A stretch of 64,000 bases of DNA from an uncultured virus (IMG/VR IMGVR_UViG_3300025087_000039) (IMGVR_UViG_3300025087_000039:1-64000), one strand, 5' to 3'. Positions 1,780-62,879 are shown, counted from the first letter of the stretch. Notes: generated by a model from the letters alone, not told the origin. Made by a program: numbers and translations.

Positions 1780-1800
1780 CTATATATATTAATAAACGAG
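1780..1800 (+). promoter_or_regulatory. Putative early phage promoter CTATATATATTAATAAACGAG
   Basis: Near-identical copies at 8820-8840 and 53651-53671, each upstream of a plus-strand gene block. Confidence 0.75.
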
Positions 1801-3012: not shown

Positions 3013-3972
3013 TTAATTTAAAGTCTCATTTATAACGCTCTCAAAGATTTCATAAAAGTGATCAACCTTATATTGATTATTTAATTCTTTCAACGGTTTT
3101 AATTCTCCTCTAAAAATTTTTTTAATTTTATCTTTTAATTCTTCAATATTATTATATAAATATTCTCTTGGTAATAATTCGGGAAAAGCTAATCTATTTG
3201 GAGCCAAAGGGATACAACCCATTAAATATGCATCTAAAATTGAATAATTAAATGTATCTTCTTTTGAGGAAATTAAAAGAATTTTAGAATTTGCTAAATG
3301 TTGATAATAATCTTTCCATGAGTCAAATGATTTTCTAATAATTTTTGTGTTAAATTCTTTTTCTATTTCTCTCTCTATTTTTTTTGTAGATTTTTGTATA
3401 CAAGATCTAGACACAGAAGTTATGTCAATTATTTTATTTGAATTGAATATTTCATCATTAAAAATATCATATGGTTGTGGAAGTCCTGTGATCATTATAT
3501 TTTTTATGCCTTTTAATTTAAGGGCATGATAAACGCTTCCAACTAAAATATAATCATAATTATTTGCCATGCCCTGTTCAACTAAATATTTTTCTTTTCT
3601 TACTTTTTGAAAATAATCATATTTATTTAATGATGAGCCATGACAAAAGCATAAACTTAACTTTGGTTTTTTATGAAATAAAACTGAATGAAAAACTCCT
3701 GGAAAACTTAAATCAGCATGAAATAAAACATCATTTTTTTCTAGTTTTAAATCAAGATATTCTTCAACTTGAGATAGCTCAAATTTAATAGCCATTTCTG
3801 TATTAGAAAATAATCCCGAATTATCAGCATTTTGAGGAATATTATTTTTTCCTAAAACAATGACTTCGCTAAAAGCATCTTGAACATTCTTTGGAAACTC
3901 TGTAAACCACCATTCGCTATATCTCATCTTTATAGGAAGTTGTGGTACAAAAATCAATCTAGCCATTTTCAT
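3013..3972 (-). CDS. GT-B (GT4-like) glycosyltransferase
   Basis: C-terminal SKEDTFNYSILDAYLMGCIPLAPNRLAFPE matches the E-x-F-x4-E/D GT4 signature. Confidence 0.8.
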   Translation of the reverse strand: MKMARLIFVPQLPIKMRYSEWWFTEFPKNVQDAFSEVIVLGKNNIPQNADNSGLFSNTEMAIKFELSQVEEYLDLKLEKNDVLFHADLSFPGVFHSVLFHKKPKLSLCFCHGSSLNKYDYFQKVRKEKYLVEQGMANNYDYILVGSVYHALKLKGIKNIMITGLPQPYDIFNDEIFNSNKIIDITSVSRSCIQKSTKKIEREIEKEFNTKIIRKSFDSWKDYYQHLANSKILLISSKEDTFNYSILDAYLMGCIPLAPNRLAFPELLPREYLYNNIEELKDKIKKIFRGELKPLKELNNQYKVDHFYEIFESVINETLN

Positions 3973-4441
3973 TTCCTAATTCAATAAGCCATTTGTCATA
4001 CCCTGAAAACAAGAAATATTTATAATCATATTCCCATAAAGATTTTTGACTTGGATACAATAAATTTAAAACCTTTTTCTTTTCTTCTGAAAAAGGCGTT
4101 TCAAATATAAAAGGCGCATTCATTATTGTCGAATAAAAAATTACATTGTAACCATTTCTTAAAAGCCTTTCACCATGTTGTCCCAATAATCTATGTTCCG
4201 GATGAGTTTCATAAATCGGATGTGGAAAATAAAAAGTATTTTTTATTGATAAAAAAGCTGGAGGAACAGAATATTGAAAATATATAAATTTAACATCAAA
4301 ATGATTTCTCAAATTCAAACATTCTTCCGCTCTCTCTTTATTTAATTTTGTTGTAAAATTAACTACACAATTTCCTTTTTTTAAAATCTCAAAACAACCT
4401 ATAATCTCATCATCTGGATGTGGAGCCATAATCACATTCAT
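3959..4441 (-). CDS. PIG-L/LmbE family de-N-acetylase
   Basis: APHPDDEIIG and HPEH motifs, YPSQ near C-terminus. Confidence 0.85.
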   Translation of the reverse strand: MNVIMAPHPDDEIIGCFEILKKGNCVVNFTTKLNKERAEECLNLRNHFDVKFIYFQYSVPPAFLSIKNTFYFPHPIYETHPEHRLLGQHGERLLRNGYNVIFYSTIMNAPFIFETPFSEEKKKVLNLLYPSQKSLWEYDYKYFLFSGYDKWLIELGNENG

Positions 4442-4824
4442 GTTTTCTTCTTTCCGAAATCTATATTGATAATTTTACCTTCCTCTTTCACTTCTTCCTT
4501 TTCTCCAGGATTTATCATTTCATTAAAATCTTCTTCATTTAAAGAACTGATCAAAAGTTCTAATTCATCTTCAGAAGAAACATAAGTCATAAAAATCTTT
4601 GAATCTGTACAAGGTCCGATTTTCCCACTATAATATATCATTCCCACTATTTCTTGTTCTAAAAAATTTTTATCTTCATCATCTTCAATATCGAAAATTC
4701 CCCAAAATAAAATCGGTCTAACCACAACTTGAGGAATCCCATTTTCAAATCCAGAAAAAATGACTGCGTTCATTTTATCATTATTATTTTGAAGAAGGTT
4801 ATTTATAGTTTTATATTTCGCCAT
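4438..4824 (-). CDS. Hypothetical protein
   Basis: 128-aa ORF overlapping both neighbours. Confidence 0.6.
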   Translation of the reverse strand: MAKYKTINNLLQNNNDKMNAVIFSGFENGIPQVVVRPILFWGIFDIEDDEDKNFLEQEIVGMIYYSGKIGPCTDSKIFMTYVSSEDELELLISSLNEEDFNEMINPGEKEEVKEEGKIINIDFGKKKT

Positions 4825-5773
4825 TTGTTACCTCTTGCTTTTCAGGACAGCCTTGAATTCGATTTTGTTTTTCGTTTTTGAGATCGTTGTATCCACAGCC
4901 TTCGATAGTTTTATGGACTGATTGATGACATTCTATGCAAAGTGTGATACAAGAATCTATGTCGTTTGCGAAGCCGGGATTAAGAGCGATTGGGTCAATA
5001 TGATGACATTGAAGACTTTCTTGGACATTGCATCTTTGACATTCCCAATTGTCTCTTTCAAAGACGAGTTTTCGGATGAGGGGATTGACTTCGACTGAGA
5101 AATTATGTCCGTGTTCATTTGTTAGATTGGGCGTATCATCTTTCTTAATATTATACGGTTTGTGATTTTTTGGCCACAACACTTGATAATGATCTGGACA
5201 CAATTTTTTGCATTCACCAGAGCAATAAAAATTACAACCTATTCCATTATTTTTTCTAACTGCTCCAATTCTATTATCTAATTCAATTTGTGTTGGAACA
5301 TACCACTTTCCACAATATGTACATTTAACTTCTATTTTCTTATCTTTGTTTTCTCTATTTTTATCTTCTGTTATTTTTGGACTCCAATGTTTATAAAGAC
5401 TATCCTTAGCTCCTTTATAATATGGATTCCTCGGCCCCTTGCGATCTTTAAATATTGGATTATTTGTATGGGTTTCTTTTAATCTTTCTCTTAATTTTTC
5501 TGACCCTTCTTTACTATATAATTCTTCCCAAGTTTTTCCTTTTTGATAAGGAATTCTTTCTTTGCTCTTTAATCCAATTTTTCTCTTTATTTCTTTTGCT
5601 TTTTCTTCACCATGTCGCATTTCTAAAGTAATCCCTAAATTAGCATCTCTTAATTTTTGACGAGTTTCATCAGTAACCACATTCTTATTATGACCCCATA
5701 AATATTTATTAGTTTTTTTAGTAACTTCTTTTCCACACCCACAATCACATAAAGGAAAATTTTCTTCACTCAT
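4811..5773 (-). CDS. Free-standing HNH homing endonuclease with NUMOD3-like and Zn-finger DNA-binding domains
   Basis: CDCGCG, ETRQKLRDANLG, KGKTWEELY, CTYCG...YCSGEC, VFERDNWECQRC...LQCHHIDP...TLCIECHQSVH. AGGAG SD points to the ATG at 5773. Confidence 0.85.
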   Translation of the reverse strand: MSEENFPLCDCGCGKEVTKKTNKYLWGHNKNVVTDETRQKLRDANLGITLEMRHGEEKAKEIKRKIGLKSKERIPYQKGKTWEELYSKEGSEKLRERLKETHTNNPIFKDRKGPRNPYYKGAKDSLYKHWSPKITEDKNRENKDKKIEVKCTYCGKWYVPTQIELDNRIGAVRKNNGIGCNFYCSGECKKLCPDHYQVLWPKNHKPYNIKKDDTPNLTNEHGHNFSVEVNPLIRKLVFERDNWECQRCNVQESLQCHHIDPIALNPGFANDIDSCITLCIECHQSVHKTIEGCGYNDLKNEKQNRIQGCPEKQEVTNGEI

Positions 5774-5785
5774 TTTAAAGCTCCT

Positions 5786-5849
5786 TTTCATATCGACACC
5801 CATTATGATTTATATTTTGTTCTTATTCATAATGGGTGTCGATATGAAA
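5786..5849 (-). promoter_or_regulatory. 23-bp perfect hairpin abutting the HNH SD, with AGAACAAA motif in its loop
   Basis: TTTCATATCGACACCCATTATGA (5786-5808) / TCATAATGGGTGTCGATATGAAA (5827-5849); motif at 5816-5823. Confidence 0.75.
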
Positions 5850-6899: not shown

Positions 6900-8120
6900 T
6901 TAGTTATTTGACTTCTTTACATCTTCATCATGATCCTGATTCAAATGAAACCCACATTTAATCCAAGCTAAAAAACAATACGTTGCAATTTTCAAAAGAT
7001 CTTTTTCTCTTTTTTGATTCAAGAATCTTCCACAATATTTTACAATTGTTTGAATAATCCAATCGACTCCAGTTTTTCCTGGACTTAAAAGACAAACAAA
7101 ATCTGTATGTTCCATATCATTGATTAATGCATATTTTTCACCGCCATGTTCAAATTGATTTGCAATTAATTTTGCAAAAGCTGCCCAATTTTCTCTTTTA
7201 GCTGAAAGACCAGTATTATACATACTGATATCTTTTCCCTGACTATTTTTAATTTTCATATCATTTGAAGATTTTTTAATTTGTTCCTTGTTAATATTTT
7301 TCATGCTTTCTAAACATGAAACATTAAAAGGGTGTTTTTCTGATTCGGAAGGCTGAGGAAATTCTTTGAAATCTTCAATTTCTGGAAGAAAGTTTAAACA
7401 TTGTTTTACTACGTCATAGGGCAAAAAAGACTTAGCCATATAAAAAGCAATTTTTTCTTCATCATGATCATTCAATATATTATTACATGCTTCACACTTT
7501 TCATTTTCAGAACAATGACAGATTTTAATTTCTTTTTCCTGACTATTTTTAATTTGTTCCTTATCAGTTTTTTCTTTTCTAATTTCTTCAATGATTTTAG
7601 AATCAAATGGCGGAATATAAGCTGTTAAATGATCAACGTTACCATCTTTATTTTCATCTTTTTTATTTAATTGATTAGTAATTGACTTCATAATAAATTT
7701 ACATGATTTGTCAATTTCATGTTGAACTTCTGAACTTTTAGTACAATTTAATATTTCATTATAAATAGTAAAAATCTCATTTAATGTTAAACCTAACCCA
7801 TTAAACATTTTTTTATCATTAAAAATTCCTGATTTTAACATTACATTTTTTTCTTTTTGAAGATTTGAATTTTCTCCGCAATTAGAACATCCATCATCTT
7901 TAGAGCAAGAACATTTTTCTTCTGGTTTTACCGGCTCATTAATAAATAAAGAATCAAAAGCTTTTTTAAAAACCTCAACAATTCTTTCAAGACTTTCTTG
8001 ATTTGTATAAGTTCTATTTTTAATATTTACAATAATTCTAAATAGTTCTTCTGTTAATTCTTTATTTAATAATAGTTCTGTTTTCCACATTTTTAAACTA
8101 GCCTTTCTTTGGAGGTTCAT
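6900..8120 (-). CDS. Hypothetical protein with C-terminal DUF3310/dNTP-diphosphohydrolase-like helical domain
   Basis: C-terminal HGGEKYA...IVKYCGRF...EKDLLKIATY; two CxC..CxxC motifs and short internal repeats. Confidence 0.5.
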   Translation of the reverse strand: MNLQRKASLKMWKTELLLNKELTEELFRIIVNIKNRTYTNQESLERIVEVFKKAFDSLFINEPVKPEEKCSCSKDDGCSNCGENSNLQKEKNVMLKSGIFNDKKMFNGLGLTLNEIFTIYNEILNCTKSSEVQHEIDKSCKFIMKSITNQLNKKDENKDGNVDHLTAYIPPFDSKIIEEIRKEKTDKEQIKNSQEKEIKICHCSENEKCEACNNILNDHDEEKIAFYMAKSFLPYDVVKQCLNFLPEIEDFKEFPQPSESEKHPFNVSCLESMKNINKEQIKKSSNDMKIKNSQGKDISMYNTGLSAKRENWAAFAKLIANQFEHGGEKYALINDMEHTDFVCLLSPGKTGVDWIIQTIVKYCGRFLNQKREKDLLKIATYCFLAWIKCGFHLNQDHDEDVKKSNN

Positions 8121-8676
8121 AACCAGAATAATAGGTATTTTCTTTAATTTGATATTGATTTGAAAGAAGAGATTTAATTAGTTCTTTAGTCATTCCTAAT
8201 AATGGAGCTTCAATATTGATGGGATAAGATGGAGAAATTTGAGATGCATTATTCATTCGTCCAATAAATTCTTGAGAACAATCTGGAAAAGAATTTAGAT
8301 AATCTGAAAAGTCCGGCCCAATCCAAACCGTCTTAATATTCATACTTTCTGCAACGGATAAGGCCAAACCCAAAAAGATTGTATTTCTTCCAGGAACGTG
8401 CATTGGATGAGCATTTCCATATTTTCCTGAAACTAAATTTCCAGTTAAACCACTAGAAATATTTTCTCCTAAATTTACTTTCAAAATCTTATATGGAATA
8501 TTTCCTTCAGATAAATGAGATTCTGCATATTTCAATTCTTCAATATGTTTTTGCCCATAATCAATTAAAACACCAAATGGTTTCTTTTTTGTACCTAAAG
8601 CAAATTCGATCATAAGTCTGCTATCCGCACCACCACTATACAAAATAACCAGATCACATGTGCTATCAGTTCCCAT
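8098..8676 (-). CDS. queC: QueC-family PP-loop ATPase lacking the C-terminal Zn-binding Cys cluster
   Basis: LYSGGADS, DYGQKH..EL, HVPGRNTIFL, FPDC...F, EAPLLGMTK. Ends TYYSGY without CGxCxxC. Confidence 0.8.
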   Translation of the reverse strand: MGTDSTCDLVILYSGGADSRLMIEFALGTKKKPFGVLIDYGQKHIEELKYAESHLSEGNIPYKILKVNLGENISSGLTGNLVSGKYGNAHPMHVPGRNTIFLGLALSVAESMNIKTVWIGPDFSDYLNSFPDCSQEFIGRMNNASQISPSYPINIEAPLLGMTKELIKSLLSNQYQIKENTYYSGYEPPKKG

Positions 8677-8715
8677 TTTTTAGCCTTTCACGATTTGAGG
8701 AAAACTATTTTTTAA

Positions 8716-8775
8716 TTTGTTCTTTATCTAAAAAACTTTTTCTTAACCAAAATATTCAAATTTTTAATTTGTTCT
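8716..8775 (-). promoter_or_regulatory. Two AGAACAAA motifs (8716-8723, 8768-8775) in an 18-bp direct repeat
   Basis: TTTTTAATTTGTTCTTTA occurs twice upstream of queC. Confidence 0.6.
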
Positions 8776-8819
8776 TTAGGTTAAAAATACCTTCTTTTTT
8801 TCATTTATTCTTTTACTTT

Positions 8820-8840
8820 CTATATATATTAATAAATGAG
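8820..8840 (+). promoter_or_regulatory. Putative early phage promoter CTATATATATTAATAAATGAG
   Basis: 20/21 identical to 1780-1800. Confidence 0.75.
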
Positions 8841-8897
8841 TTATGAGTTGTTTATGTGGTTTTCATTCCTATATCAACCCTCAGAGAGGACATAACA

Positions 8898-9104
8898 ATG
8901 TCGGATATAATCGCTGTCGTTCATACCGAGGAAACGGTTGAAGAACTCATTCTCAAAAGCAGTACTTTCATCCTTTCCAAGAGAAACAAAAAAGGTGACC
9001 TCATGGAGGAAAGGGTGGTCTCGGAGAGAGAAGCAGATAAATGGTATAATAAGAATCAGAAGAAGGGAAACCTCTCAGTTCCCTTCGAATGGATGTTTGC
9101 GTAA
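8898..9104 (+). CDS. Hypothetical protein
   Basis: SD GAGAGGA before ATG 8898; first gene after the promoter motif. Confidence 0.6.
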   Translation: MSDIIAVVHTEETVEELILKSSTFILSKRNKKGDLMEERVVSEREADKWYNKNQKKGNLSVPFEWMFA

Positions 9105-9130
9105 TTATCAACCCTCAAATGGAGTCTTCA

Positions 9131-9340
9131 ATGATTCAAAATCCCTGTCTCCAAGGGGCTGGATTAGGGAGATTTCAAGTTCCCTTTTCCAAGGTGGTTG
9201 AATGTAATGACGCATCCCCGCCGGGATGTGCAACCTTTAAAAGAATTGGAACCTGGAAGGGATGGGAATCTTGCCCTTTCGGTGGGAACGCGGGATATCT
9301 GTTGATCGCCTTCCGGAGATGGGAAGAAAACAACAGATAA
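9131..9340 (+). CDS. Hypothetical protein
   Basis: SD GGAG before ATG 9131. Confidence 0.45.
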   Translation: MIQNPCLQGAGLGRFQVPFSKVVECNDASPPGCATFKRIGTWKGWESCPFGGNAGYLLIAFRRWEENNR

Positions 9341-9346
9341 GCAGAG

Positions 9347-9382
9347 GGGGCCGGATTGGTATTAGGAAATCAATCCGGCCCC
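9347..9382 (+). terminator. GC-rich hairpin (terminator or processing site)
   Basis: GGGGCCGGATTG/CAATCCGGCCCC 12-bp IR; no U-tract. Confidence 0.5.
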
Positions 9383-9413
9383 AGTGGAGTCAATCCCAGA
9401 CATGGAGAAAAAG

Positions 9414-9632
9414 ATGAACAGTTCATCATGTACTGTAAAAGAGATAACAATAAAAGATCTTAAACCTGGAGATAAATTTCGAATCAAAAGAAAAAAAGAT
9501 AAATTCTTGAAAACAGATTTAAAAGATATAGTGATGCATTTGGACACATTTAGATTATATGTGCTTTTGCCAAATATGGTTTGTGAAATTATTAAATATC
9601 AAAACAAAATAGTTTTAGATTTGAGTCAATAA
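9414..9632 (+). CDS. Hypothetical protein
   Basis: SD GGAG; IKDLKPGDKF motif common in small phage proteins. Confidence 0.55.
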   Translation: MNSSSCTVKEITIKDLKPGDKFRIKRKKDKFLKTDLKDIVMHLDTFRLYVLLPNMVCEIIKYQNKIVLDLSQ

Positions 9633-9805
9633 TGGATTTATGTCTCAAAATAATCGCCTTTGTGGTTGAAAGCGTATTTGCTTCAATGGTAACGTTAATA
9701 GGTTTAATTTTAAAAATCTCCCTTGAGATTTTGATAAAAATCTTTGAACTCATATTTCAATTGATAACCAAGGATGATGATAAAAATGAAACTCCAATAG
9801 TTTAA
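9632..9805 (+). CDS. Small hydrophobic protein (57 aa, absent from the ORF track)
   Basis: TAATG coupling with upstream ORF; MDLCLKIIAFVVESVFASMVTLIGLILK... Confidence 0.5.
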   Translation: MDLCLKIIAFVVESVFASMVTLIGLILKISLEILIKIFELIFQLITKDDDKNETPIV

Positions 9806-9816
9806 GGAGAAAGAAC

Positions 9817-10242
9817 ATGTTAGAGCTGACAAAGGAACAGAATGATATCATAAACCAATTGGGAGTCGATCAAAGAAATGCATTATTTGCGCTATTAGAT
9901 GTCAATAAATTTCCTAATGCAACCATGGATTCAATTAATAAATTGTTTATGATATTCTGTGCACAAAATCATAATGAATTTGCAAATCATCTCTTTTCCG
10001 AAATAATCGAAAATATAAACAAGCTTTTTACTATGGGAAAATGGGAAAAATTATATACAATTTTCGAGCACTTATTAAAACATAGGATTGAAGACTGTAT
10101 AAAGATGAAAAAAGAAATTGAACCTTATGAAGAAATATATTTAGACTTGGTTAAGTATATTAAAATATTCAGAGATGCTGGACTTATCAACCAACTCGCA
10201 ATTCTAAGAATGGCCCGAGAAAAAGGCCTTCTTTCCGAATAG
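9817..10242 (+). CDS. Hypothetical protein
   Basis: SD TAAGGAG; 141 aa. Confidence 0.7.
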   Translation: MLELTKEQNDIINQLGVDQRNALFALLDVNKFPNATMDSINKLFMIFCAQNHNEFANHLFSEIIENINKLFTMGKWEKLYTIFEHLLKHRIEDCIKMKKEIEPYEEIYLDLVKYIKIFRDAGLINQLAILRMAREKGLLSE

Positions 10243-10326
10243 GAAGTTCATTTACCAACGCCAGATAAAGAATGGCGTTCATTGTGTAATTCACCCAAAA
10301 CAATGTTACATGAAAGCGAGGACACA

Positions 10327-11175
10327 ATGGAAGATGGATGCCAAGTCGGAGAAGAGAAGGGTACGGAGAACAAGAAGGCGAAGGAATACCTGAAACATGT
10401 GGCCAAGAAAACAACCACAAAGGTCCTTCGGACGATGAAGATCACCCTGGTCATGATCCTGGGAATGATCGTTCTCTTCGCGGCCTTCGGGGGCTTCAGC
10501 TCCCAAGGCATGAAGGACGTGGCGAGCTCCGTGGGAAACAGCCTCACCGGGGCCAAGGACATGTATCTGGCCTTGAAGGCGATCTCCGGCGAAAACCAGC
10601 TCGCCAAGGACGTTGTTGAGGAACTCCGGGCTGAGGTGAAGAATCCGGAGTTCCTCGGTTTCAGGTTCGTGACGGTCGATGGGATGCAGGTGATCACCAA
10701 CGAGGAGGGGATGAAGAATCCCCATATCCTCAAGGGCCTCGTTTTCCAGGCCAAGGAGAATGGCCAGGACAGCGTCGTCTTCCCGTGGACGATATACCGG
10801 GATCTGGTGGAGGGAGCAGTGATTGCGCCAATCACCTCTGCCGGCATGGTCCTGGGTCCCGAGACAACCATGTCCTGGCTGATCAAGAGGATGATCAGCC
10901 AGGGCATCAGCAAGCCCTGGTGGGTAGTTGAGAACAGGAATGAAATCGTGGTTCCCCTTGGGACAACGGAGTTTGGCCCCATGGTCTACGGAGAGGAAAA
11001 AACCCTCCTCTCCGGCCTGTTCGGCGGCCCCCCTTCCTTCAAGTCCTGGGTTGACTTCCCGGCTCAGGAAAAAACCCTCAAGTTCAAAGCGGATGGATCG
11101 GTCGACAGCGGAACGAAGTACGTCGACGAGATCCAGGACTTCGCCAAGGACAAGATCAAGGAAGCCGTGAAGTAG
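10327..11175 (+). CDS. GC-rich membrane-anchored hypothetical protein
   Basis: SD GAGG before ATG 10327; TM helix ITLVMILGMIVLFAAFGGF; strong G/C third-position bias. Confidence 0.75.
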   Translation: MEDGCQVGEEKGTENKKAKEYLKHVAKKTTTKVLRTMKITLVMILGMIVLFAAFGGFSSQGMKDVASSVGNSLTGAKDMYLALKAISGENQLAKDVVEELRAEVKNPEFLGFRFVTVDGMQVITNEEGMKNPHILKGLVFQAKENGQDSVVFPWTIYRDLVEGAVIAPITSAGMVLGPETTMSWLIKRMISQGISKPWWVVENRNEIVVPLGTTEFGPMVYGEEKTLLSGLFGGPPSFKSWVDFPAQEKTLKFKADGSVDSGTKYVDEIQDFAKDKIKEAVK

Positions 11176-11713
11176 AATTCTATCATGTCCGAAACCTTCT
11201 GGAGGCCGGCAGGGCACGGAAGGAATTAGGCGAAGTAGAATTTGTGTGGTTTTTCCCGGGCTACGGCCTCAGCCTGGGATTAGCCGCTGGACTTGCCAAG
11301 AGCCCAACGGCCGAAGCAAATGGGGGAAGGGAAGTGCGTCAAGGCGCTTGTATCTTGATGACTTCATGTTAAGGCGACAGCGAATACCCTCACGGGGAAA
11401 GTCTGTAAGTCCACATCCAAACCTTCCCCCATTAAAAGAATGAAGGAAAGGGTTCCCCCAAGTTAACAGATCTTGGGGGAACCACCTTGCTGGCCGGCAA
11501 ACTCACTTACATGGGCCTCTGCCATAAGACCGCATAAAACTTTCCTTCACCAAGGGCTCTTTAGACGTCTAAAGGGTCCTGGGCGGTGGGGTACAAATCC
11601 GAGTGAGTTGCATCGGTCTACCCCACCGCCCAAAAAGAAAAGGGTTGGGCCTGGAGCGGGAACACCAAACCGTGCAAGAAGGCATTGCACACATCACCGC
11701 TCCAGGCCCTAAC
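11175..11713 (+). ncRNA. Candidate ~540-nt structured ncRNA (seven helical domains, possible pseudoknot)
   Basis: Perfect stems 11319-11330/11422-11433, 11441-11450/11540-11549, 11451-11462/11472-11483, 11580-11593/11619-11632, 11647-11659/11697-11709, plus GU-containing stems and A-rich linkers. Confidence 0.6.
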
Positions 11714-11787
11714 ACAAAAATTTATTTTTTTTAAATCTAATTCTAAATGTTCTAAAAAACTACTAAAAAAGAACCAGAGGAAACCCC

Positions 11788-12969
11788 ATGAGCGATCTGA
11801 TCGAGATTTTGTTCAGTTTTGATACGACAGGAAGTATGTATCCCTGTCTATCACAAGTTCGAAGAGTTCTTAAACAAAGTATTGAGAGACTTTTTAAGGA
11901 CATACCAAATTTAAGAATCTCAGTCTTGGCCCATGGAGATTATTGTGATAAAAATAGAACCTATGTTACGACATTTTTAAATCTGAGCAACAATATGACA
12001 AATATTACAAACTTTGTTATGAACATTGGTCCAACTGGTGGGGGCGACAGTCCCGAATGTTATGAAAAAGTTCTAAGGCAGGCAAGAACTGAAATTTCAT
12101 GGACTCCTGGAAGCAAAAAATTGATTGTCATCATTGGAGATGATATTCCACACCCTCCACATTATAATATGAACACTGAAAAAATTGATTGGAGAAAAGA
12201 ATTAGATCTTTTAAAAGAGATGGGAATTCAAGTTTATGGGGTTCATGCAATGCCAGGAATTCGAAGACACTCAAAACCATTCTATATGGAAATTGCTAAT
12301 AAAACAGGAGGGTTCTATTTAACTCTTGAACAATTTTCTGACATTATGAATTTAATTATGGGAGTCTGTTATAATCAAAATAATTCATTAAATCAATTCA
12401 ATGATGAAATTGAAAGATCAGGTTTTATGACAGTTTCTCTTAAAAAATCATTTGATGCCCTCAGAGGAATTTCAATTGAAAAAGATTATTCCGAGTATGA
12501 TTTTGAATATGAAGATCCATATTTTGAAAAACCGAAAAGAACATCATATAGAGATATTCGAAGGGTAACGAAAAAATCAGGAGAATTTAAAAATCTCCCT
12601 GAAGGTCTTGAAATTATTCCTTCAGGAAGATTTCAAGTTATTCCTGTCGATTCAACCATTGATATAAAAACGTTTGTTTCGTCTCAAGGAATTCCTTTTC
12701 AAAAAGGTAGAGGTTTTTATGAACTCTCAAAGTCAGTTAAAGTACAGCAATACAAAGAAATCATTTTAATGAATAAAAGGACAGGAGAATTTTTTGGTGG
12801 AAAAGAAGCTCGACTTATTTTAGGCCTTAAACCTCAAACGGCAAGTGGAGGGATAACTGAAAGACTTCCAAATATTGAACTATCAAATTGGAGGGTATTT
12901 ATTCAGTCAACTTCAAATAACCGAAAACTCATTGCAGGCACGACATTTTTGTATGAGGTTATTGACTAA
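11788..12969 (+). CDS. vWA (MIDAS) domain protein with conserved C-terminal domain
   Basis: FSFDTTGSM, HGDYCD, TGGGDSPECYE, IIGDDIPH; C-terminal FQKGRGFYEL...FIQSTSNNRKL. Confidence 0.85.
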   Translation: MSDLIEILFSFDTTGSMYPCLSQVRRVLKQSIERLFKDIPNLRISVLAHGDYCDKNRTYVTTFLNLSNNMTNITNFVMNIGPTGGGDSPECYEKVLRQARTEISWTPGSKKLIVIIGDDIPHPPHYNMNTEKIDWRKELDLLKEMGIQVYGVHAMPGIRRHSKPFYMEIANKTGGFYLTLEQFSDIMNLIMGVCYNQNNSLNQFNDEIERSGFMTVSLKKSFDALRGISIEKDYSEYDFEYEDPYFEKPKRTSYRDIRRVTKKSGEFKNLPEGLEIIPSGRFQVIPVDSTIDIKTFVSSQGIPFQKGRGFYELSKSVKVQQYKEIILMNKRTGEFFGGKEARLILGLKPQTASGGITERLPNIELSNWRVFIQSTSNNRKLIAGTTFLYEVID

Positions 12970-12976
12970 GAAATCT

Positions 12977-13018
12977 TTCGCCAATGGGGTCTATGTCTAA
13001 CCGGACCCCATTGGCGAA
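12977..13018. terminator. Hairpin terminator between convergent blocks
   Basis: 15-bp perfect IR TTCGCCAATGGGGTC/GACCCCATTGGCGAA. Confidence 0.75.
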
Positions 13019-43861: not shown

Positions 43862-44427
43862 TGTTAAGCCCTACTTCAAAAGAAAGAATTCTTGAAAATT
43901 TTTATAGTATAGATTATATATTTTTTGGAAAGCCTGTTAGGGAAATGAAAACTTGTTGTGAAGCATTGATGGAAGAATATTTGACTATTAAAGGGTCTCT
44001 TTTAAGTGTTTTGTCTGAAATGTATAAAGTGACAAAACATTCTCCAAAACCAATTGGTCAGAAATTAACGGAGAAGAGACTACACATTTTAGCCGCAGAA
44101 AGTGCAAAAATTGCTAGGCAAAATAGTAAGGCAATTTTAGTTACAGAAAAGTCTGAAAAGGATATTAAAAAGGCTGTGAAATCCTTGATTCAGGAATCAA
44201 AGAAAGTTAAAATTAATGAGGCGGTTGAAAAAACTATTAGGAAAAAGGGATTCTCTTTGGCTATCGATAATCTTTTAATTTCAAGAATGTTAAATGAATC
44301 AAAGTCTCCCAAATCTTTAAATGAAATGGATGGAAGAATTATTGAAGAAGCTTATAAAGTTCTTAGAGAATCTCTCGTGGACTCAGCTATTTTGATTGCG
44401 GAATCTAATGAGTCTAAAAACAAGTGA
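43861..44427 (+). CDS. Hypothetical protein (possibly head-internal)
   Basis: 188 aa; several (I/L)xES motifs. Confidence 0.6.
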   Translation: MLSPTSKERILENFYSIDYIFFGKPVREMKTCCEALMEEYLTIKGSLLSVLSEMYKVTKHSPKPIGQKLTEKRLHILAAESAKIARQNSKAILVTEKSEKDIKKAVKSLIQESKKVKINEAVEKTIRKKGFSLAIDNLLISRMLNESKSPKSLNEMDGRIIEEAYKVLRESLVDSAILIAESNESKNK

Positions 44428-45310
44428 TCTAAAAGATCTTTTAACTTATTTAGAAACGAATAAGGGGAAGTCCCAAGAAGATTTAAAAAGTGGGACTTCC
44501 CCTTATTTCCAACAAACAGAAATAAAGAAAAATGAATCAAAAGAAGATTTTAAAGATCTTCAACAAAATATTAAAACAACATATAAAGAAACAAGTTGTT
44601 TTGATGTAGAACTATTTGAAAAAATAATAAGAAAAAAATTATTACAAGAAAAAAATAAACCTCAAGAATATGAACGACCGTATATTTCTGTAACTGAATT
44701 ATTTTCATGTTTGAGAAAAATTTATTATGCCAGAATGAATTATCAAATCAATGAACAAAAAGTTTTTATTTATCCTTATAGTTATTTAATGAGAGAAACT
44801 GGATCTTTTATTCATAAGATGATTCAAGAGATTTACCCTTTTGATGAAGTGGAAAAAACAATAATAAGCGAAAAATATAAAGTCAAGGGAAAAGTTGATG
44901 GAATTATTAAAAATAATGTTATAGAAATAAAAACTATAGATCCTGATAAATTTGAAAATAAATATAGAGAAAATGATTTAATACAAGGATTAATATATTC
45001 TGAGATTTTAAATAAGGAATATGGATATAATATCACAAATGTGACTTTGATATATATTTTAAGAACATTAAAAAAGCCAGTTATTTTTGATCTTCCTTGT
45101 AATGAGGAGATTTCTTTAAAATATTTAAAATATGGACCCATTCTAAAAAAGCATTTAGATGAGAAAACTGTTCCTGAAAAAATAGGAAAGACAAAAGAAC
45201 AATGTACATATTGTGAATATAAAGATTTTTGTATAAAAGATGGAGGCGATGATATTCAATCTCCGCCAAAGGAAAAAAGAAATAAGAAAGATTCTATCTT
45301 TTTGTTTTAG
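44408..45310 (+). CDS. Cas4-like PD-(D/E)xK exonuclease
   Basis: SCLRKIYY, GSFIH, GKVDG, IEIKT, QGLIY, CTYCEYKDFC. Confidence 0.85.
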   Translation: MSLKTSDLKDLLTYLETNKGKSQEDLKSGTSPYFQQTEIKKNESKEDFKDLQQNIKTTYKETSCFDVELFEKIIRKKLLQEKNKPQEYERPYISVTELFSCLRKIYYARMNYQINEQKVFIYPYSYLMRETGSFIHKMIQEIYPFDEVEKTIISEKYKVKGKVDGIIKNNVIEIKTIDPDKFENKYRENDLIQGLIYSEILNKEYGYNITNVTLIYILRTLKKPVIFDLPCNEEISLKYLKYGPILKKHLDEKTVPEKIGKTKEQCTYCEYKDFCIKDGGDDIQSPPKEKRNKKDSIFLF

Positions 45311-53650: not shown

Positions 53651-53671
53651 CTATATATATTAATATTTGAG
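53651..53671 (+). promoter_or_regulatory. Putative early phage promoter CTATATATATTAATATTTGAG
   Basis: Third copy of the motif; AGAACAAA also at 53604-53611. Confidence 0.7.
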
Positions 53672-60533: not shown

Positions 60534-62879
60534 ATGGCCAATCTTAATTTTTTAAATGTTGAAGAATTTTGTAGAAAACTGACTCCAGTTTTATCTACAG
60601 AATTTTTTTCGAGAAGTGGTGGGTTTAATCAAGAAGGGTTATTTTCTGAAGATATTTTTGGACCTGAAGGATCTTTTGAAAGAAGGCAAAAGTTTTCTTA
60701 TATAGATCTTGGAGCTTATGTTTTACATCCAACCGCGTATAAAATTTTAAAACAAATACATAGAAAATTTGAGAAATATATATCTACAGAAGAAAAATAT
60801 ATTATAACCGATGGAAAAATAGAAACAGCAGAAGAAGGGAGAACTGGATTACAAAATTTTATGGAAGATTTTGATAAAATTGAATTTAGAGGGGAAACAC
60901 GTACAAGAGAAAAATTAATCTTTTTATTAAAAGAATCTAATAAAAAGGGACTTTTATTTATTAGAAAACTTCCAGTTATTCCCCCTGATTTAAGACCTAT
61001 CTTCAAAGATGAATCAAATCAATGGATTCATGATAGTTTAAATGATATTTATTTATCAGTTATGTATAGAGCCTCACAAATAAAATCTGTTGGCTCAAAA
61101 GGTGAACTTTTTGATTTATTAAATTTTAGTCTTCAAACTTCGGTAAATTCTCATGATGATTTTATACGCACAAGAGTTCAAAAAAAGGATGGAATTATTA
61201 GAAATCAATTATTGGGAAAACGTGTCGATTTTTCTGGGCGAGCGGTTATCACCCCTGGACCAGATTTAAAAGTAAGTGAGGTTGGACTTCCATTTAAAAT
61301 GGCTGTAAAACTATTAGAGCCATTTATAATTCATATTCTTTTACATACAAATCTTATAGATAAAAATCTTTTATCAAGAGAAATAAAAAAATATACAAAA
61401 AGTGAATTAAATGTTGATACAATTCTTCAGGTTATAAAATCTATAAAAATAGGTGATGAAGTTCCTAAAGAATTGTATGATATATTTTTTCAAGCCACGG
61501 AGATCGCCTCAAAAGATAGAGTTGTTTTATTAAAGCGAGATCCAGTTCTTCATGATCAAGGTTATGGGGCGTTTTATATAAAAATTCATCATGGAAATAC
61601 CATGCAATTATGTGCTTTAAGAGTCGGTGGGTTTAACGCCGACTTTGATGGAGATGCAATGGGTGTTTTTCTTCCTTTGAGTAAAGAGGCTCAGGAAGAA
61701 GCAAAAATGAAAATGATGAGGCTAACAGCCGGTTCATCAACAAATAGTATGACCTTTGAATTATCAAAAGAAATGGCTCTTGGACTTTATAGTTTAACAA
61801 AAGATGTAAAAGTAAATAAATCCCCAGTTTCGGTTTCAAAGGAATTATTAGAAAAAGGAACAAATCCATATTTACCTGTAATATTTAAAAAAAGACAAAC
61901 CACTCTTGGAAGAGCAATTTTTAATTATTGTTTTCCAGAAGATTTTAGATTTGTCGATGGACAAATAAACAAGAAAATTGTCAACAATTTAATTCAAGAA
62001 ATATATCAAAAATACGGAAAAGAAATAACTCTAAATACATTTTTAAAGGTTGAAAATATAGGATTTAAATGGGCTACGATTTTTGGAGATAGCCTTCCCC
62101 TAGATGAATTAACAATTCCTGATTCTATAATTCAATTAAAGAAAAAAATGAGTGGGGCCACTATAGAAGAGGCTTCAGACCTTTTAGAAAAAATGAAAAA
62201 AATATTAATCGAACATTTAAAAGATACTGGATTATATGAAATAATTGAATCTGGTGCTGGAAAAGGATGGGATTCTCCTATGCAAATTTTAGTGGCAAAG
62301 GGTATCATCGCTGATCCAAAAGGAAACGTTTTGCCCCCAATTGAAAGTTCTTTTTCTGAAGGGTTAACAAATAAACAATATTTTGAAGCATCCTCTGGAT
62401 CAAGACATGGCATCATTTCACGGGTTATATCGACTAGTCAAACTGGCTATTTTGCAAGAAAATTAGTTTATCTTTTAAACTCTGTTGAAGCTGATCCTAT
62501 ATTAAAGGATTGCAAAACAAAAAGAACTTTAAATATTAGACTTACCAAAGAAATGGTCTCTAGATTTATGGGCCGTTATATTTTAAAGAATGATAAAATT
62601 ATAAAATTTGAAGAATCTGGTTTGAAAGAAGGCGATATAGCAAATATCAGAACACCGATTTTTTGCGAATCTTTAAAAATTTGTCATACATGTTATGGAG
62701 ATTTATTGAAGGTTAACAAAACCCCGTACATTGGAATTTTTACTGCTTTAAAATTGGGACAAATGAGTACTCAAAATATTATGAGAGTTTTTCATACTGG
62801 AGGCAAAGTAACAATCGCAAAAAGAAATATGCTTAAAGATATTCTTGAAAACAACCCGTCTGACGATTTGGAACTTTAA
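60534..62879 (+). CDS. rpoC: Multi-subunit RNA polymerase beta' subunit, N-terminal part with catalytic site
   Basis: GLFSEDIFGP, LPVIPPDLRP, LLGKRVDFSGRAVI, RDPVLH, FNADFDGD, bridge helix TSQTGYFARKL, C-terminal Zn site, trigger helix STQNIMRVFHTGG. Confidence 0.93.
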   Translation: MANLNFLNVEEFCRKLTPVLSTEFFSRSGGFNQEGLFSEDIFGPEGSFERRQKFSYIDLGAYVLHPTAYKILKQIHRKFEKYISTEEKYIITDGKIETAEEGRTGLQNFMEDFDKIEFRGETRTREKLIFLLKESNKKGLLFIRKLPVIPPDLRPIFKDESNQWIHDSLNDIYLSVMYRASQIKSVGSKGELFDLLNFSLQTSVNSHDDFIRTRVQKKDGIIRNQLLGKRVDFSGRAVITPGPDLKVSEVGLPFKMAVKLLEPFIIHILLHTNLIDKNLLSREIKKYTKSELNVDTILQVIKSIKIGDEVPKELYDIFFQATEIASKDRVVLLKRDPVLHDQGYGAFYIKIHHGNTMQLCALRVGGFNADFDGDAMGVFLPLSKEAQEEAKMKMMRLTAGSSTNSMTFELSKEMALGLYSLTKDVKVNKSPVSVSKELLEKGTNPYLPVIFKKRQTTLGRAIFNYCFPEDFRFVDGQINKKIVNNLIQEIYQKYGKEITLNTFLKVENIGFKWATIFGDSLPLDELTIPDSIIQLKKKMSGATIEEASDLLEKMKKILIEHLKDTGLYEIIESGAGKGWDSPMQILVAKGIIADPKGNVLPPIESSFSEGLTNKQYFEASSGSRHGIISRVISTSQTGYFARKLVYLLNSVEADPILKDCKTKRTLNIRLTKEMVSRFMGRYILKNDKIIKFEESGLKEGDIANIRTPIFCESLKICHTCYGDLLKVNKTPYIGIFTALKLGQMSTQNIMRVFHTGGKVTIAKRNMLKDILENNPSDDLEL

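Follow-up and report, generated by a model that had tools for sequence, protein, structure and literature searches.

Morons, as reportedly described by Hendrix and co-workers, are extra phage genes of deviant base composition that are equipped with their own expression signals and inserted between conserved genes. A different arrangement is represented by REP/BIME, an extragenic palindrome family that is repeated many times per genome and is thought to stabilise the upstream mRNA. In the hyperplastic regions of T4-type phages, furthermore, excerpts of published reports describe PeSL (promoter-early stem-loop) cassettes that border swappable ORFans (PMC2839356, PMC4122927). Phages and prophages are also frequent carriers of two large ornate RNAs, GOLLD and ROOL. 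Here, we compare with these systems a gene-free stretch of 540 bases (positions 11175–11713), hereafter called the trailer, in the DNA of an uncultured virus (IMG/VR IMGVR_UViG_3300025087_000039, nucleotides 1–64000; this whole stretch of 64,000 nt is the window). The window belongs to a source record of 125,597 nt with ~27% GC. In the window, the trailer extends from the stop codon of a + strand open reading frame (ORF) at 10282–11175, which is an ORFan, to the AT-rich leader of a + strand gene at 11788–12969, and both of the flanking genes point in the same direction.

With about an even chance of being right, we read the 540 bases as the co-transcribed, non-coding 3′ hairpin trailer of a moron-like cassette (~10250–11721) that was acquired recently and varies between strains, where it would act in termination, insulation or stabilisation. 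This reading is favoured because the block is foreign in composition, the gene and the trailer seem to vary jointly, no promoter is found inside, hairpins of the same style stand behind other genes of the phage, the + strand gives the better fold of the two strands, and a gene-plus-tail format recurs in the same record.

Comparison with known systems

Among the systems mentioned above, the phage moron comes closest to how the cassette would work, except that the 3′ signal is oversized here. As in a moron, a gene with 57% GC in a genome with 27% GC lies between conserved phage genes, is present in some genomes and replaced in others, and is followed by hairpins; a deviant extra gene that is variably present between conserved genes is, in other words, what we find at this locus. 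Unlike in a moron, no promoter was found, and the 3′ signal is not one terminator but an array of seven domains over 540 nt. Indeed, neither a promoter-like site on the + strand near 10243–10330 nor a canonical terminator was detected, a weak test given that the scanned signals may not be those of the phage polymerase. When an intrinsic terminator was defined as a GC-rich hairpin with a T-run within 0–2 nt, the end of the trailer failed, the T-run beginning 13 nt past the stem of domain 7, and the scan called the inner hairpin at 11337–11360 (+) alone; overall, four sites were called against 3.5 expected.

The PeSL cassettes are similar to our locus in that ORFans occupy a variable part of a large phage whose replication is T4-like, stem-loops are found at or near some of the cassette borders, and indel/replacement polymorphism is indicated (excerpts of PMC2839356 and PMC4122927). 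In those excerpts, however, PeSLs are short, sequence-conserved and repeated units of promoter plus terminator, whereas the hairpins here are all different and unrepeated, are stacked seven deep and have no sigma-70-like promoter attached. A conserved unit repeated at many sites was not found, and none of the repeat families contains a hairpin of the trailer.

With REP/BIME, the trailer shares the clustered GC-rich palindromic hairpins and the 3′ intergenic position, but none of its hairpins recurs in the record or was found in a search of 401 Desulfobacterota genomes. As for a unit repeated many times, a self-BLAST of the block returned its own inverted repeats only, and a BLAST search of the 401 genomes with the trailer gave matches at E ≤ 0.01 in nine genomes, all of which were ≤38 nt and of chance size; eight of these ten matches fell wholly or in part within the AT-rich spacer beyond the trailer.

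The initial annotation, which had been made from the sequence alone, recognised no known RNA family in the trailer, and this is borne out by the covariance models of 4227 Rfam families. There was no match at the gathering score in the whole 64-kb window, and when 8500–12200 was searched at E ≤ 10, the sole match in the trailer was to a microRNA model; its score was 19.2 bits, where 90 is the gathering score, and it corresponded to the − strand of the 14-bp hairpin. The families that thus found no member here include GOLLD (which we take to be RF01998), ROOL, HEARO, group I and II introns, ribozymes, riboswitches, 6S and CsrB-like RNAs. Also, ARAGORN predicted neither tRNA nor tmRNA genes, be it in the window or in the 125.6-kb record. 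The trailer resembles GOLLD and ROOL in its size class (~500–800 nt), its location in a phage, its multi-domain predicted fold and the presence of tRNAs at the locus of a relative (compared with excerpts of 10.1101/2024.12.08.627333 and PMC5737381), but it matches neither of the two covariance models even at E ≤ 10 and shows no conservation. Furthermore, the helices of GOLLD and ROOL are irregular and covarying, whereas the stems of the trailer are long perfect palindromes. Judged from its sequence, the trailer is not a PeSL, not a member of an Rfam family, not a REP-type repeat and not a canonical terminator.

Structure of the trailer

The trailer is strongly structured beyond its first 144 nt and is non-coding. 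On the + strand, the minimum free energy (MFE) of 11175–11713 was −244.0 kcal/mol against −180.0 ± 6.95 kcal/mol for 100 dinucleotide shuffles (z −9.21), and none of the 100 shuffles folded as well; the shuffle test that had been proposed for this region hence confirms its high degree of structure. The − strand gave −222.5 kcal/mol (z −5.74). The + strand, which is the sense of the flanking genes, folded better overall and in four of the five sub-domains. Also, the codon-position GC of the trailer is flat (0.49/0.58/0.53) with no periodicity, and no Pfam signal at E ≤ 1 was found in the six small ORFs on its two strands, which agrees with the earlier description of a non-coding stretch between co-oriented genes.

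In the MFE fold of the + strand, seven domains are formed by 175 pairs (100 G–C, 58 A–U and 17 G–U). The claim that about seven helical domains tile the region is thus correct in the number of domains, but the first 144 nt (11175–11318) are marginally structured, with a z of −2.4 on the + strand (3 of 200 shuffles as good) and −1.6 on the − strand. Domains 1 and 2, which start from the stop codon (11175–11287, +), are two imperfect hairpins rich in G–U pairs, and eight of the 17 G–U pairs are indeed concentrated in these weak 5′ domains. Domain 3 (11319–11433, +) is a three-way junction with a perfect 12-bp closing stem (z −4.5 on the + strand and −2.7 on the − strand), and domain 4 (11441–11549, +) is composed of a perfect 10-bp closing stem, an adjoining 12-bp hairpin (11451–11483) and a weak second branch (z −5.4 and −4.5, respectively). 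Domains 5 and 6 (11553–11632, +) are a 12-bp palindromic hairpin and then a perfect 14-bp stem around a small hairpin (11550–11640: z −7.6 and −5.4), and domain 7 (11647–11709, +), the last element of the GC-rich block, is a perfect 13-bp stem around a 6-bp hairpin (11641–11713: z −5.4 and −5.7). The four long stems quoted in the initial annotation proved to be perfect, namely 11319–11330/11422–11433 (12 bp), 11441–11450/11540–11549 (10 bp), 11580–11593/11619–11632 (14 bp) and 11647–11659/11697–11709 (13 bp), and beyond these we noticed the inner 12-bp hairpin, 11451–11462/11472–11483, which is also perfect.

The stems of ≥10 bp are exact Watson–Crick palindromes, and none of the 60 pairs across the five longest stems is a G–U pair; these long stems therefore carry no strand or RNA-level signal. 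When the 125.6-kb record was searched for perfect inverted repeats (arms ≥10 bp, spacer ≤110 nt), 118 were found, 24 of which contain ≥4 G/C per arm, and five of these 24 fall within the 391 bases of 11319–11709. We consider it unlikely that the palindromes are features of the DNA with no role as RNA, either recombination or exchange points of the cassette or by-products of a palindrome-perfecting template-switch mutation in the donor or the phage. Such a role is consistent with the exactness of the long stems, which form equally on both strands, and with the − strand also folding well (z −5.7). Moreover, two perfect 12-bp hairpins with short loops (10618–10656 and 10874–10903) lie within the coding part of the ORFan, a place in which a 3′ RNA signal would be meaningless, and this number is far beyond chance for 900 nt. 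The hairpins, however, share no sequence with one another or with other sites in the record and hence offer no PeSL-like homology for recombination, and the G–U pairs in the 5′ domains are specific to the + strand.

An autonomous large structured non-coding RNA (ncRNA), or a cluster of processed small hairpin RNAs, could alternatively be the cargo of the cassette and serve, for example, as a scaffold, a sponge or a decoy during infection; this we hold to be doubtful. The extreme z of −9.2, the multi-branched domains 3 and 4 with A-rich linkers, the preference for the + strand and a size within the range of phage-borne ornate RNAs all argue for such an RNA, but its stems of ≥10 bp, being all perfect Watson–Crick, are unlike those of long-evolved RNAs. 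A pseudoknot between 11500–11508 and 11601–11609, which had been suggested before, does not help either: the 9-nt complementarity is present (eight Watson–Crick pairs and one G–U pair) but is at chance level, given that shuffles contain 4.2 ± 2.9 such 9-bp windows per sequence and the real sequence contains five outside the MFE helices, at about four places, with the suggested pairing among them. We also tried to regard domain 3, domain 4 and a look-alike at 9179–9287 as copies of one Y-shaped module, but the consensus energy was just −7.9 kcal/mol with no convincing alignment, and this lack of a common structure is again unfavourable to an autonomous RNA. Furthermore, no promoter-like site was found on the + strand over 10008–12139, neither between the ORFan and the trailer nor inside the trailer, and the trailer is linked to the ORFan cassette; the proposal of an independent ncRNA, or of small RNAs released by RNase III, thus gained no support. 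A folded mRNA trailer fits the data no less well than an independent RNA gene does.

Relatives of the trailer

No relative of the trailer was detected in any of the collections searched. A "distant" blastn search against 50,697 phage records gave no match, and BLAST of the block against five Desulfobacterota genomes gave matches of ≤39 nt only. Two phage records with a gene related to that at 11788–12969 were also compared by BLAST, which returned matches of 15–23 nt with E ≥ 0.4. The sole other copy is in a second assembly (L001) of the same phage, which is 99.99% identical to the record over 12,891 nt with one mismatch. From the two identical copies, a covariance model of domains 4–7 (R1; 272 positions, 85 pairs) was built, and this model found itself alone in G000 (the source record), G405 and G406, and nothing in 151 Desulfobacterota genomes under stricter filters and with no positive control. 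Exact patterns of the hairpins in domain 6, the inner part of domain 4 and domain 7 were not matched in viral contigs, either. For an autonomous RNA, therefore, there is no homologue in the phage collection, the Desulfobacterota genomes, the two related phages or the viral contigs, and hence neither conservation nor covariation, in addition to the lack of an Rfam match and of its own promoter-like site.

The downstream gene (11788–12969, +) is AT-rich and VWA-like (Pfam VWA_4, E 2.7e-5, which is under the family cut-off), is conserved in phages with 43–45% identity to its relatives in the two other phage records, and is present there without the GC-rich block. In one of these relatives (L098), small ORFs are closely packed ahead of the VWA gene, and the other (L099), a complete phage of 210.7 kb with terminal repeats, has tRNA-Phe, tRNA-Gly and tRNA-Lys at the equivalent position (3940–4720). 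The slot upstream of the VWA gene can therefore hold RNA genes, though not this trailer, and the tRNA genes in this distant relative are a point in favour of an RNA gene as the cargo of our cassette. Taken together, these results favour a structured mRNA trailer belonging to a foreign cassette that varies between strains, and make a separate RNA gene the less likely of the two.

We also noticed in L099 an unannotated stretch of 350 nt between tRNA-Gly and tRNA-Lys, which has a tRNA-like start and contains a motif of ~20 nt twice; it might encode a tRNA with an interruption or some other RNA. Separately, an 11-mer near the VWA gene was considered as a promoter box, with three matches against 0.74 expected, and was rejected as six of 100 shuffles also reached three.

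The GC-rich block and its ORFan

In the AT-rich source record, GC exceeds 45% in only five stretches: 1–1200, 9101–9450, 10251–11750, 75301–75550 and 90151–90800. The third of these contains the trailer and has 50–59% GC against 0.27–0.34 in the flanks, and the block proper is 1.46 kb at 57% GC, of which the ORFan occupies the first two thirds and the hairpin trailer the last third. The trailer is indeed GC-rich within a very AT-rich genome, as had been described, but it is not a separate island, the upstream gene at 10282–11175 being equally GC-rich. The composition therefore points to the whole block being foreign, and not to RNA selection alone.

The ORFan (10282–11175, +) encodes a protein with a single predicted membrane helix, which has 297 amino acids if translation starts at a TTG codon and 282 if it starts at the ATG at 10327. 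Its GC contents at the first, second and third codon positions (0.53/0.36/0.77) identify it as a true gene that originated in a GC-rich source. A search of 5.8e9 clusters and a HMMER search of 1.84e9 representatives both retrieved only the ORFan itself; no relative was found in viral contigs or genome contigs, and the single metagenome locus is L001, i.e., the same phage. The protein belongs to no family in Pfam or PHROG. A feature search in the Atlas gave a weak lead to a Cache-like sensor (score 0.93; 132–145 of 256 features in common), for which the Atlas model has a pLDDT of 0.38. The ORFan region also folds better than its shuffles (z −5.7, 20 shuffles). On the opposite strand, a 303-aa ORF was examined as a candidate for the true gene and rejected, because its codon positions would put GC1 above GC3 and it has no Pfam match; the two long antisense ORFs over the ORFan gave no Pfam family at E ≤ 1.

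With GC3 at 0.77, the block looks recently acquired and un-ameliorated. In such a block, the DNA beside the gene in the donor would remain intact, and the trailer might then be a functionless remnant of coding or intergenic DNA of the donor that was carried along by chance. There is no sign of selection in the phage, which is consistent with this explanation, but the trailer has no codon periodicity and no Pfam signal in its six ORFs, and a z of −9.2 with five perfect stems is not expected for decayed coding DNA. We regard a chance remnant as very improbable.

Variation of the proposed cassette

DNA contigs of four groundwater-metagenome runs were placed on 8500–13000. In each of the two runs X8 and X10, one contig departs from the window at 10131 and another joins it at 11722; the window version, with zero differences, is found in further contigs of these two runs. 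Among 12 runs connected with the sequence, none was an RNA run, which speaks neither for nor against transcription. Between the two points (10131–11722), the cassette is swapped in the variants for unlike, AT-rich sequence, as seen in loose ends of ≥255 letters, just 30 letters of each of which are visible. Further variants skip 8862–9109, with 11 letters in place, and 9355–9631. With these points of departure and rejoining, the ORFan and the trailer look like one presence/absence unit. These contigs are a strong hint that the gene and the trailer form one swappable cassette within a hypervariable + strand module, which probably starts at a 21-mer at 8820 and ends at a hairpin at 12977–13018.

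The positions of these junctions also bear on the possibility that the palindromes serve as exchange points of DNA. The junction at 11722 lies 12 nt past the last hairpin, domain 7, and that at 9355 is inside a hairpin (9347–9382), and comparable shuffling is mediated by promoter/stem-loop cassettes in T4-type phages, according to excerpts of the reports on them (PMC2839356, PMC4122927). The left junction at 10131, however, is at no hairpin; for all of these junctions, 30 letters per loose end are visible.

Other gene-plus-tail units in the phage

Behind many genes of the phage, single, perfect and GC-rich hairpins of 12–17 bp are found mostly without a T-run (2943, 9347, 12977, 44459, 72949, 98434 and 108622). 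The trailer stems share the style of these post-gene hairpins but are stacked several deep.

A gene with a long hairpin tail was, furthermore, seen three times in the record (3–1150, 8856–9382 and 10282–11712). In the second unit, a GC-rich ORF at 8856–9104 is followed by a structured tail of ~280 nt (9105–9382; z −4.3), which ends with the perfect 12-bp hairpin at 9347–9382; the codon-position GC of an ORF predicted across 9105–9382 is flat. In the first unit, the record starts with the 3′ end of an S1-domain (ribosomal protein S1-like) gene with 54% GC (3–587; z −3.8 for the gene itself), which is followed by a structured, non-coding tail of 560 nt (588–1150; z −5.2) containing perfect 14-bp stems at 1042–1094 and 1103–1150, and GC then falls to 27% at ~1150. 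A motif common to the three GC-rich tails was searched for and discarded: one 10-mer occurs in two of the tails (0.12 expected), and there is no sequence sharing beyond chance.

The closest homologues of the S1-domain gene, with ≤57% identity, are encoded at 80 loci of Desulfobacterota. Of these loci, 48 that have ~3 kb of downstream flank were selected and checked by hand, and 42 of the 48 had a positive spacer with a median of 80.5 nt and a maximum of 354 nt. Given these short spacers, the 560-nt hairpin tail is not the usual bacterial context, and such long hairpin tails being unusual there (42 loci), for the one GC-rich gene with homologues to compare, also speaks against a chance remnant of donor DNA as the origin of our trailer.

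In addition, another viral record (L104) was noticed to open with the end of an S1 gene, which is followed by an IHF/HU-like gene and, by eye, a tRNA-like start where ARAGORN predicts none. Also, a GC-rich insert at 90168–90730 of G000 holds a small gene whose N terminus resembles, by eye and with no search run, a helix-hairpin of the Rho-N/SAP type; this gene is followed by a classic GC-rich hairpin with a short T-run and appears as a compact moron in the same phage.

The surrounding phage

CheckV estimates the completeness of the 125.6-kb record at 40%, which implies a whole genome of roughly 310 kb. PHROG matches in the record include a clamp loader, a primase, a UvsX-like recombinase, a ribonucleotide reductase, baseplate and virion proteins, and the beta subunit of a multisubunit RNA polymerase, and by this gene content the surrounding genome is that of a huge, AT-rich groundwater phage of a lytic type.

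The + strand unit that contains the trailer is headed by an AT-rich, promoter-like 21-mer (8820–8840, +). With ≤2 mismatches, three copies of this 21-mer occur in the window (1780–1800, 8820–8840 and 53651–53671) against 0.03 expected, and every copy is located just 5′ of the first + strand ORF following a strand switch or a gap. We thus regard the recurrent 21-mer as a candidate phage promoter. At the other end, the unit is closed by a perfect 15-bp hairpin (12977–13018), which separates convergent genes.

Several other features of the record were noticed. The longest inverted repeat is perfect over 23 bp (5786–5849) and lies between two − strand genes, adjoining an HNH endonuclease gene (4811–5803). 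A gene matching the PHROG "CRISPR/Cas system associated" (E 1e-24) and the gene for the beta-like subunit of a multisubunit RNA polymerase are found at 44396–45310 and 60534–62879, respectively. Together with QueC (8098–8676) and several glycosyltransferases, these two genes suggest a huge phage that brings along machinery of its own for transcription and DNA modification.

Discussion

How a co-transcribed trailer might function can be outlined as follows. The cassette would be read on the + strand as part of a unit extending from near 8840 to the hairpin at 12977–13018, and past the stop codon of the ORFan, the transcript would fold into a row of very stable hairpins. Probably, these would work in the way that other post-gene hairpins presumably do, namely as signals for 3′-end formation or processing and as barriers to 3′ exonucleases. 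In this way, the hairpins would lend stability to the foreign message, from which the VWA gene further downstream would be partly insulated. What the data show is the fold, the lack of coding, the foreign composition, the linkage to the ORFan and the lack of a known family or relative in the searches made; co-transcription and a role as a stabiliser, a terminator or an insulator are inferred.

Several points weigh against this interpretation. Seven domains over 540 nt far exceed what a terminator or a stabiliser needs, and other genes of the phage use one hairpin. Also, the last hairpin lacks the form of a canonical intrinsic terminator, and the multi-branched forms of domains 3 and 4 are unusual for simple 3′ stabilisers. 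The variant allele, furthermore, is known from the loose ends of metagenome contigs (30 letters each) and is a hint rather than proof.

A more far-reaching interpretation, which we think quite improbable, sees the trailer as an ornate RNA that is autonomous and specific to this lineage, or as several hairpin RNAs produced by processing, carried as the cargo of the cassette. A bolder version of the same idea would take the GC-rich gene with its hairpin trailer as a recurrent format, in which the trailer is a module for the capture, expression or movement of foreign genes in AT-rich huge phages.

If the trailer is the folded 3′ end of a foreign message, the locus would be a clear example of a huge AT-rich phage carrying fresh GC-rich genes with folded 3′ ends. 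It would also be a warning that GC-rich "structured RNA islands" of AT-rich phages can be plain foreign DNA. If the trailer is instead a true RNA, or a module for the expression or mobility of the cassette, the biology of huge phages would gain either another large RNA or a hitherto undescribed format of gene capture.

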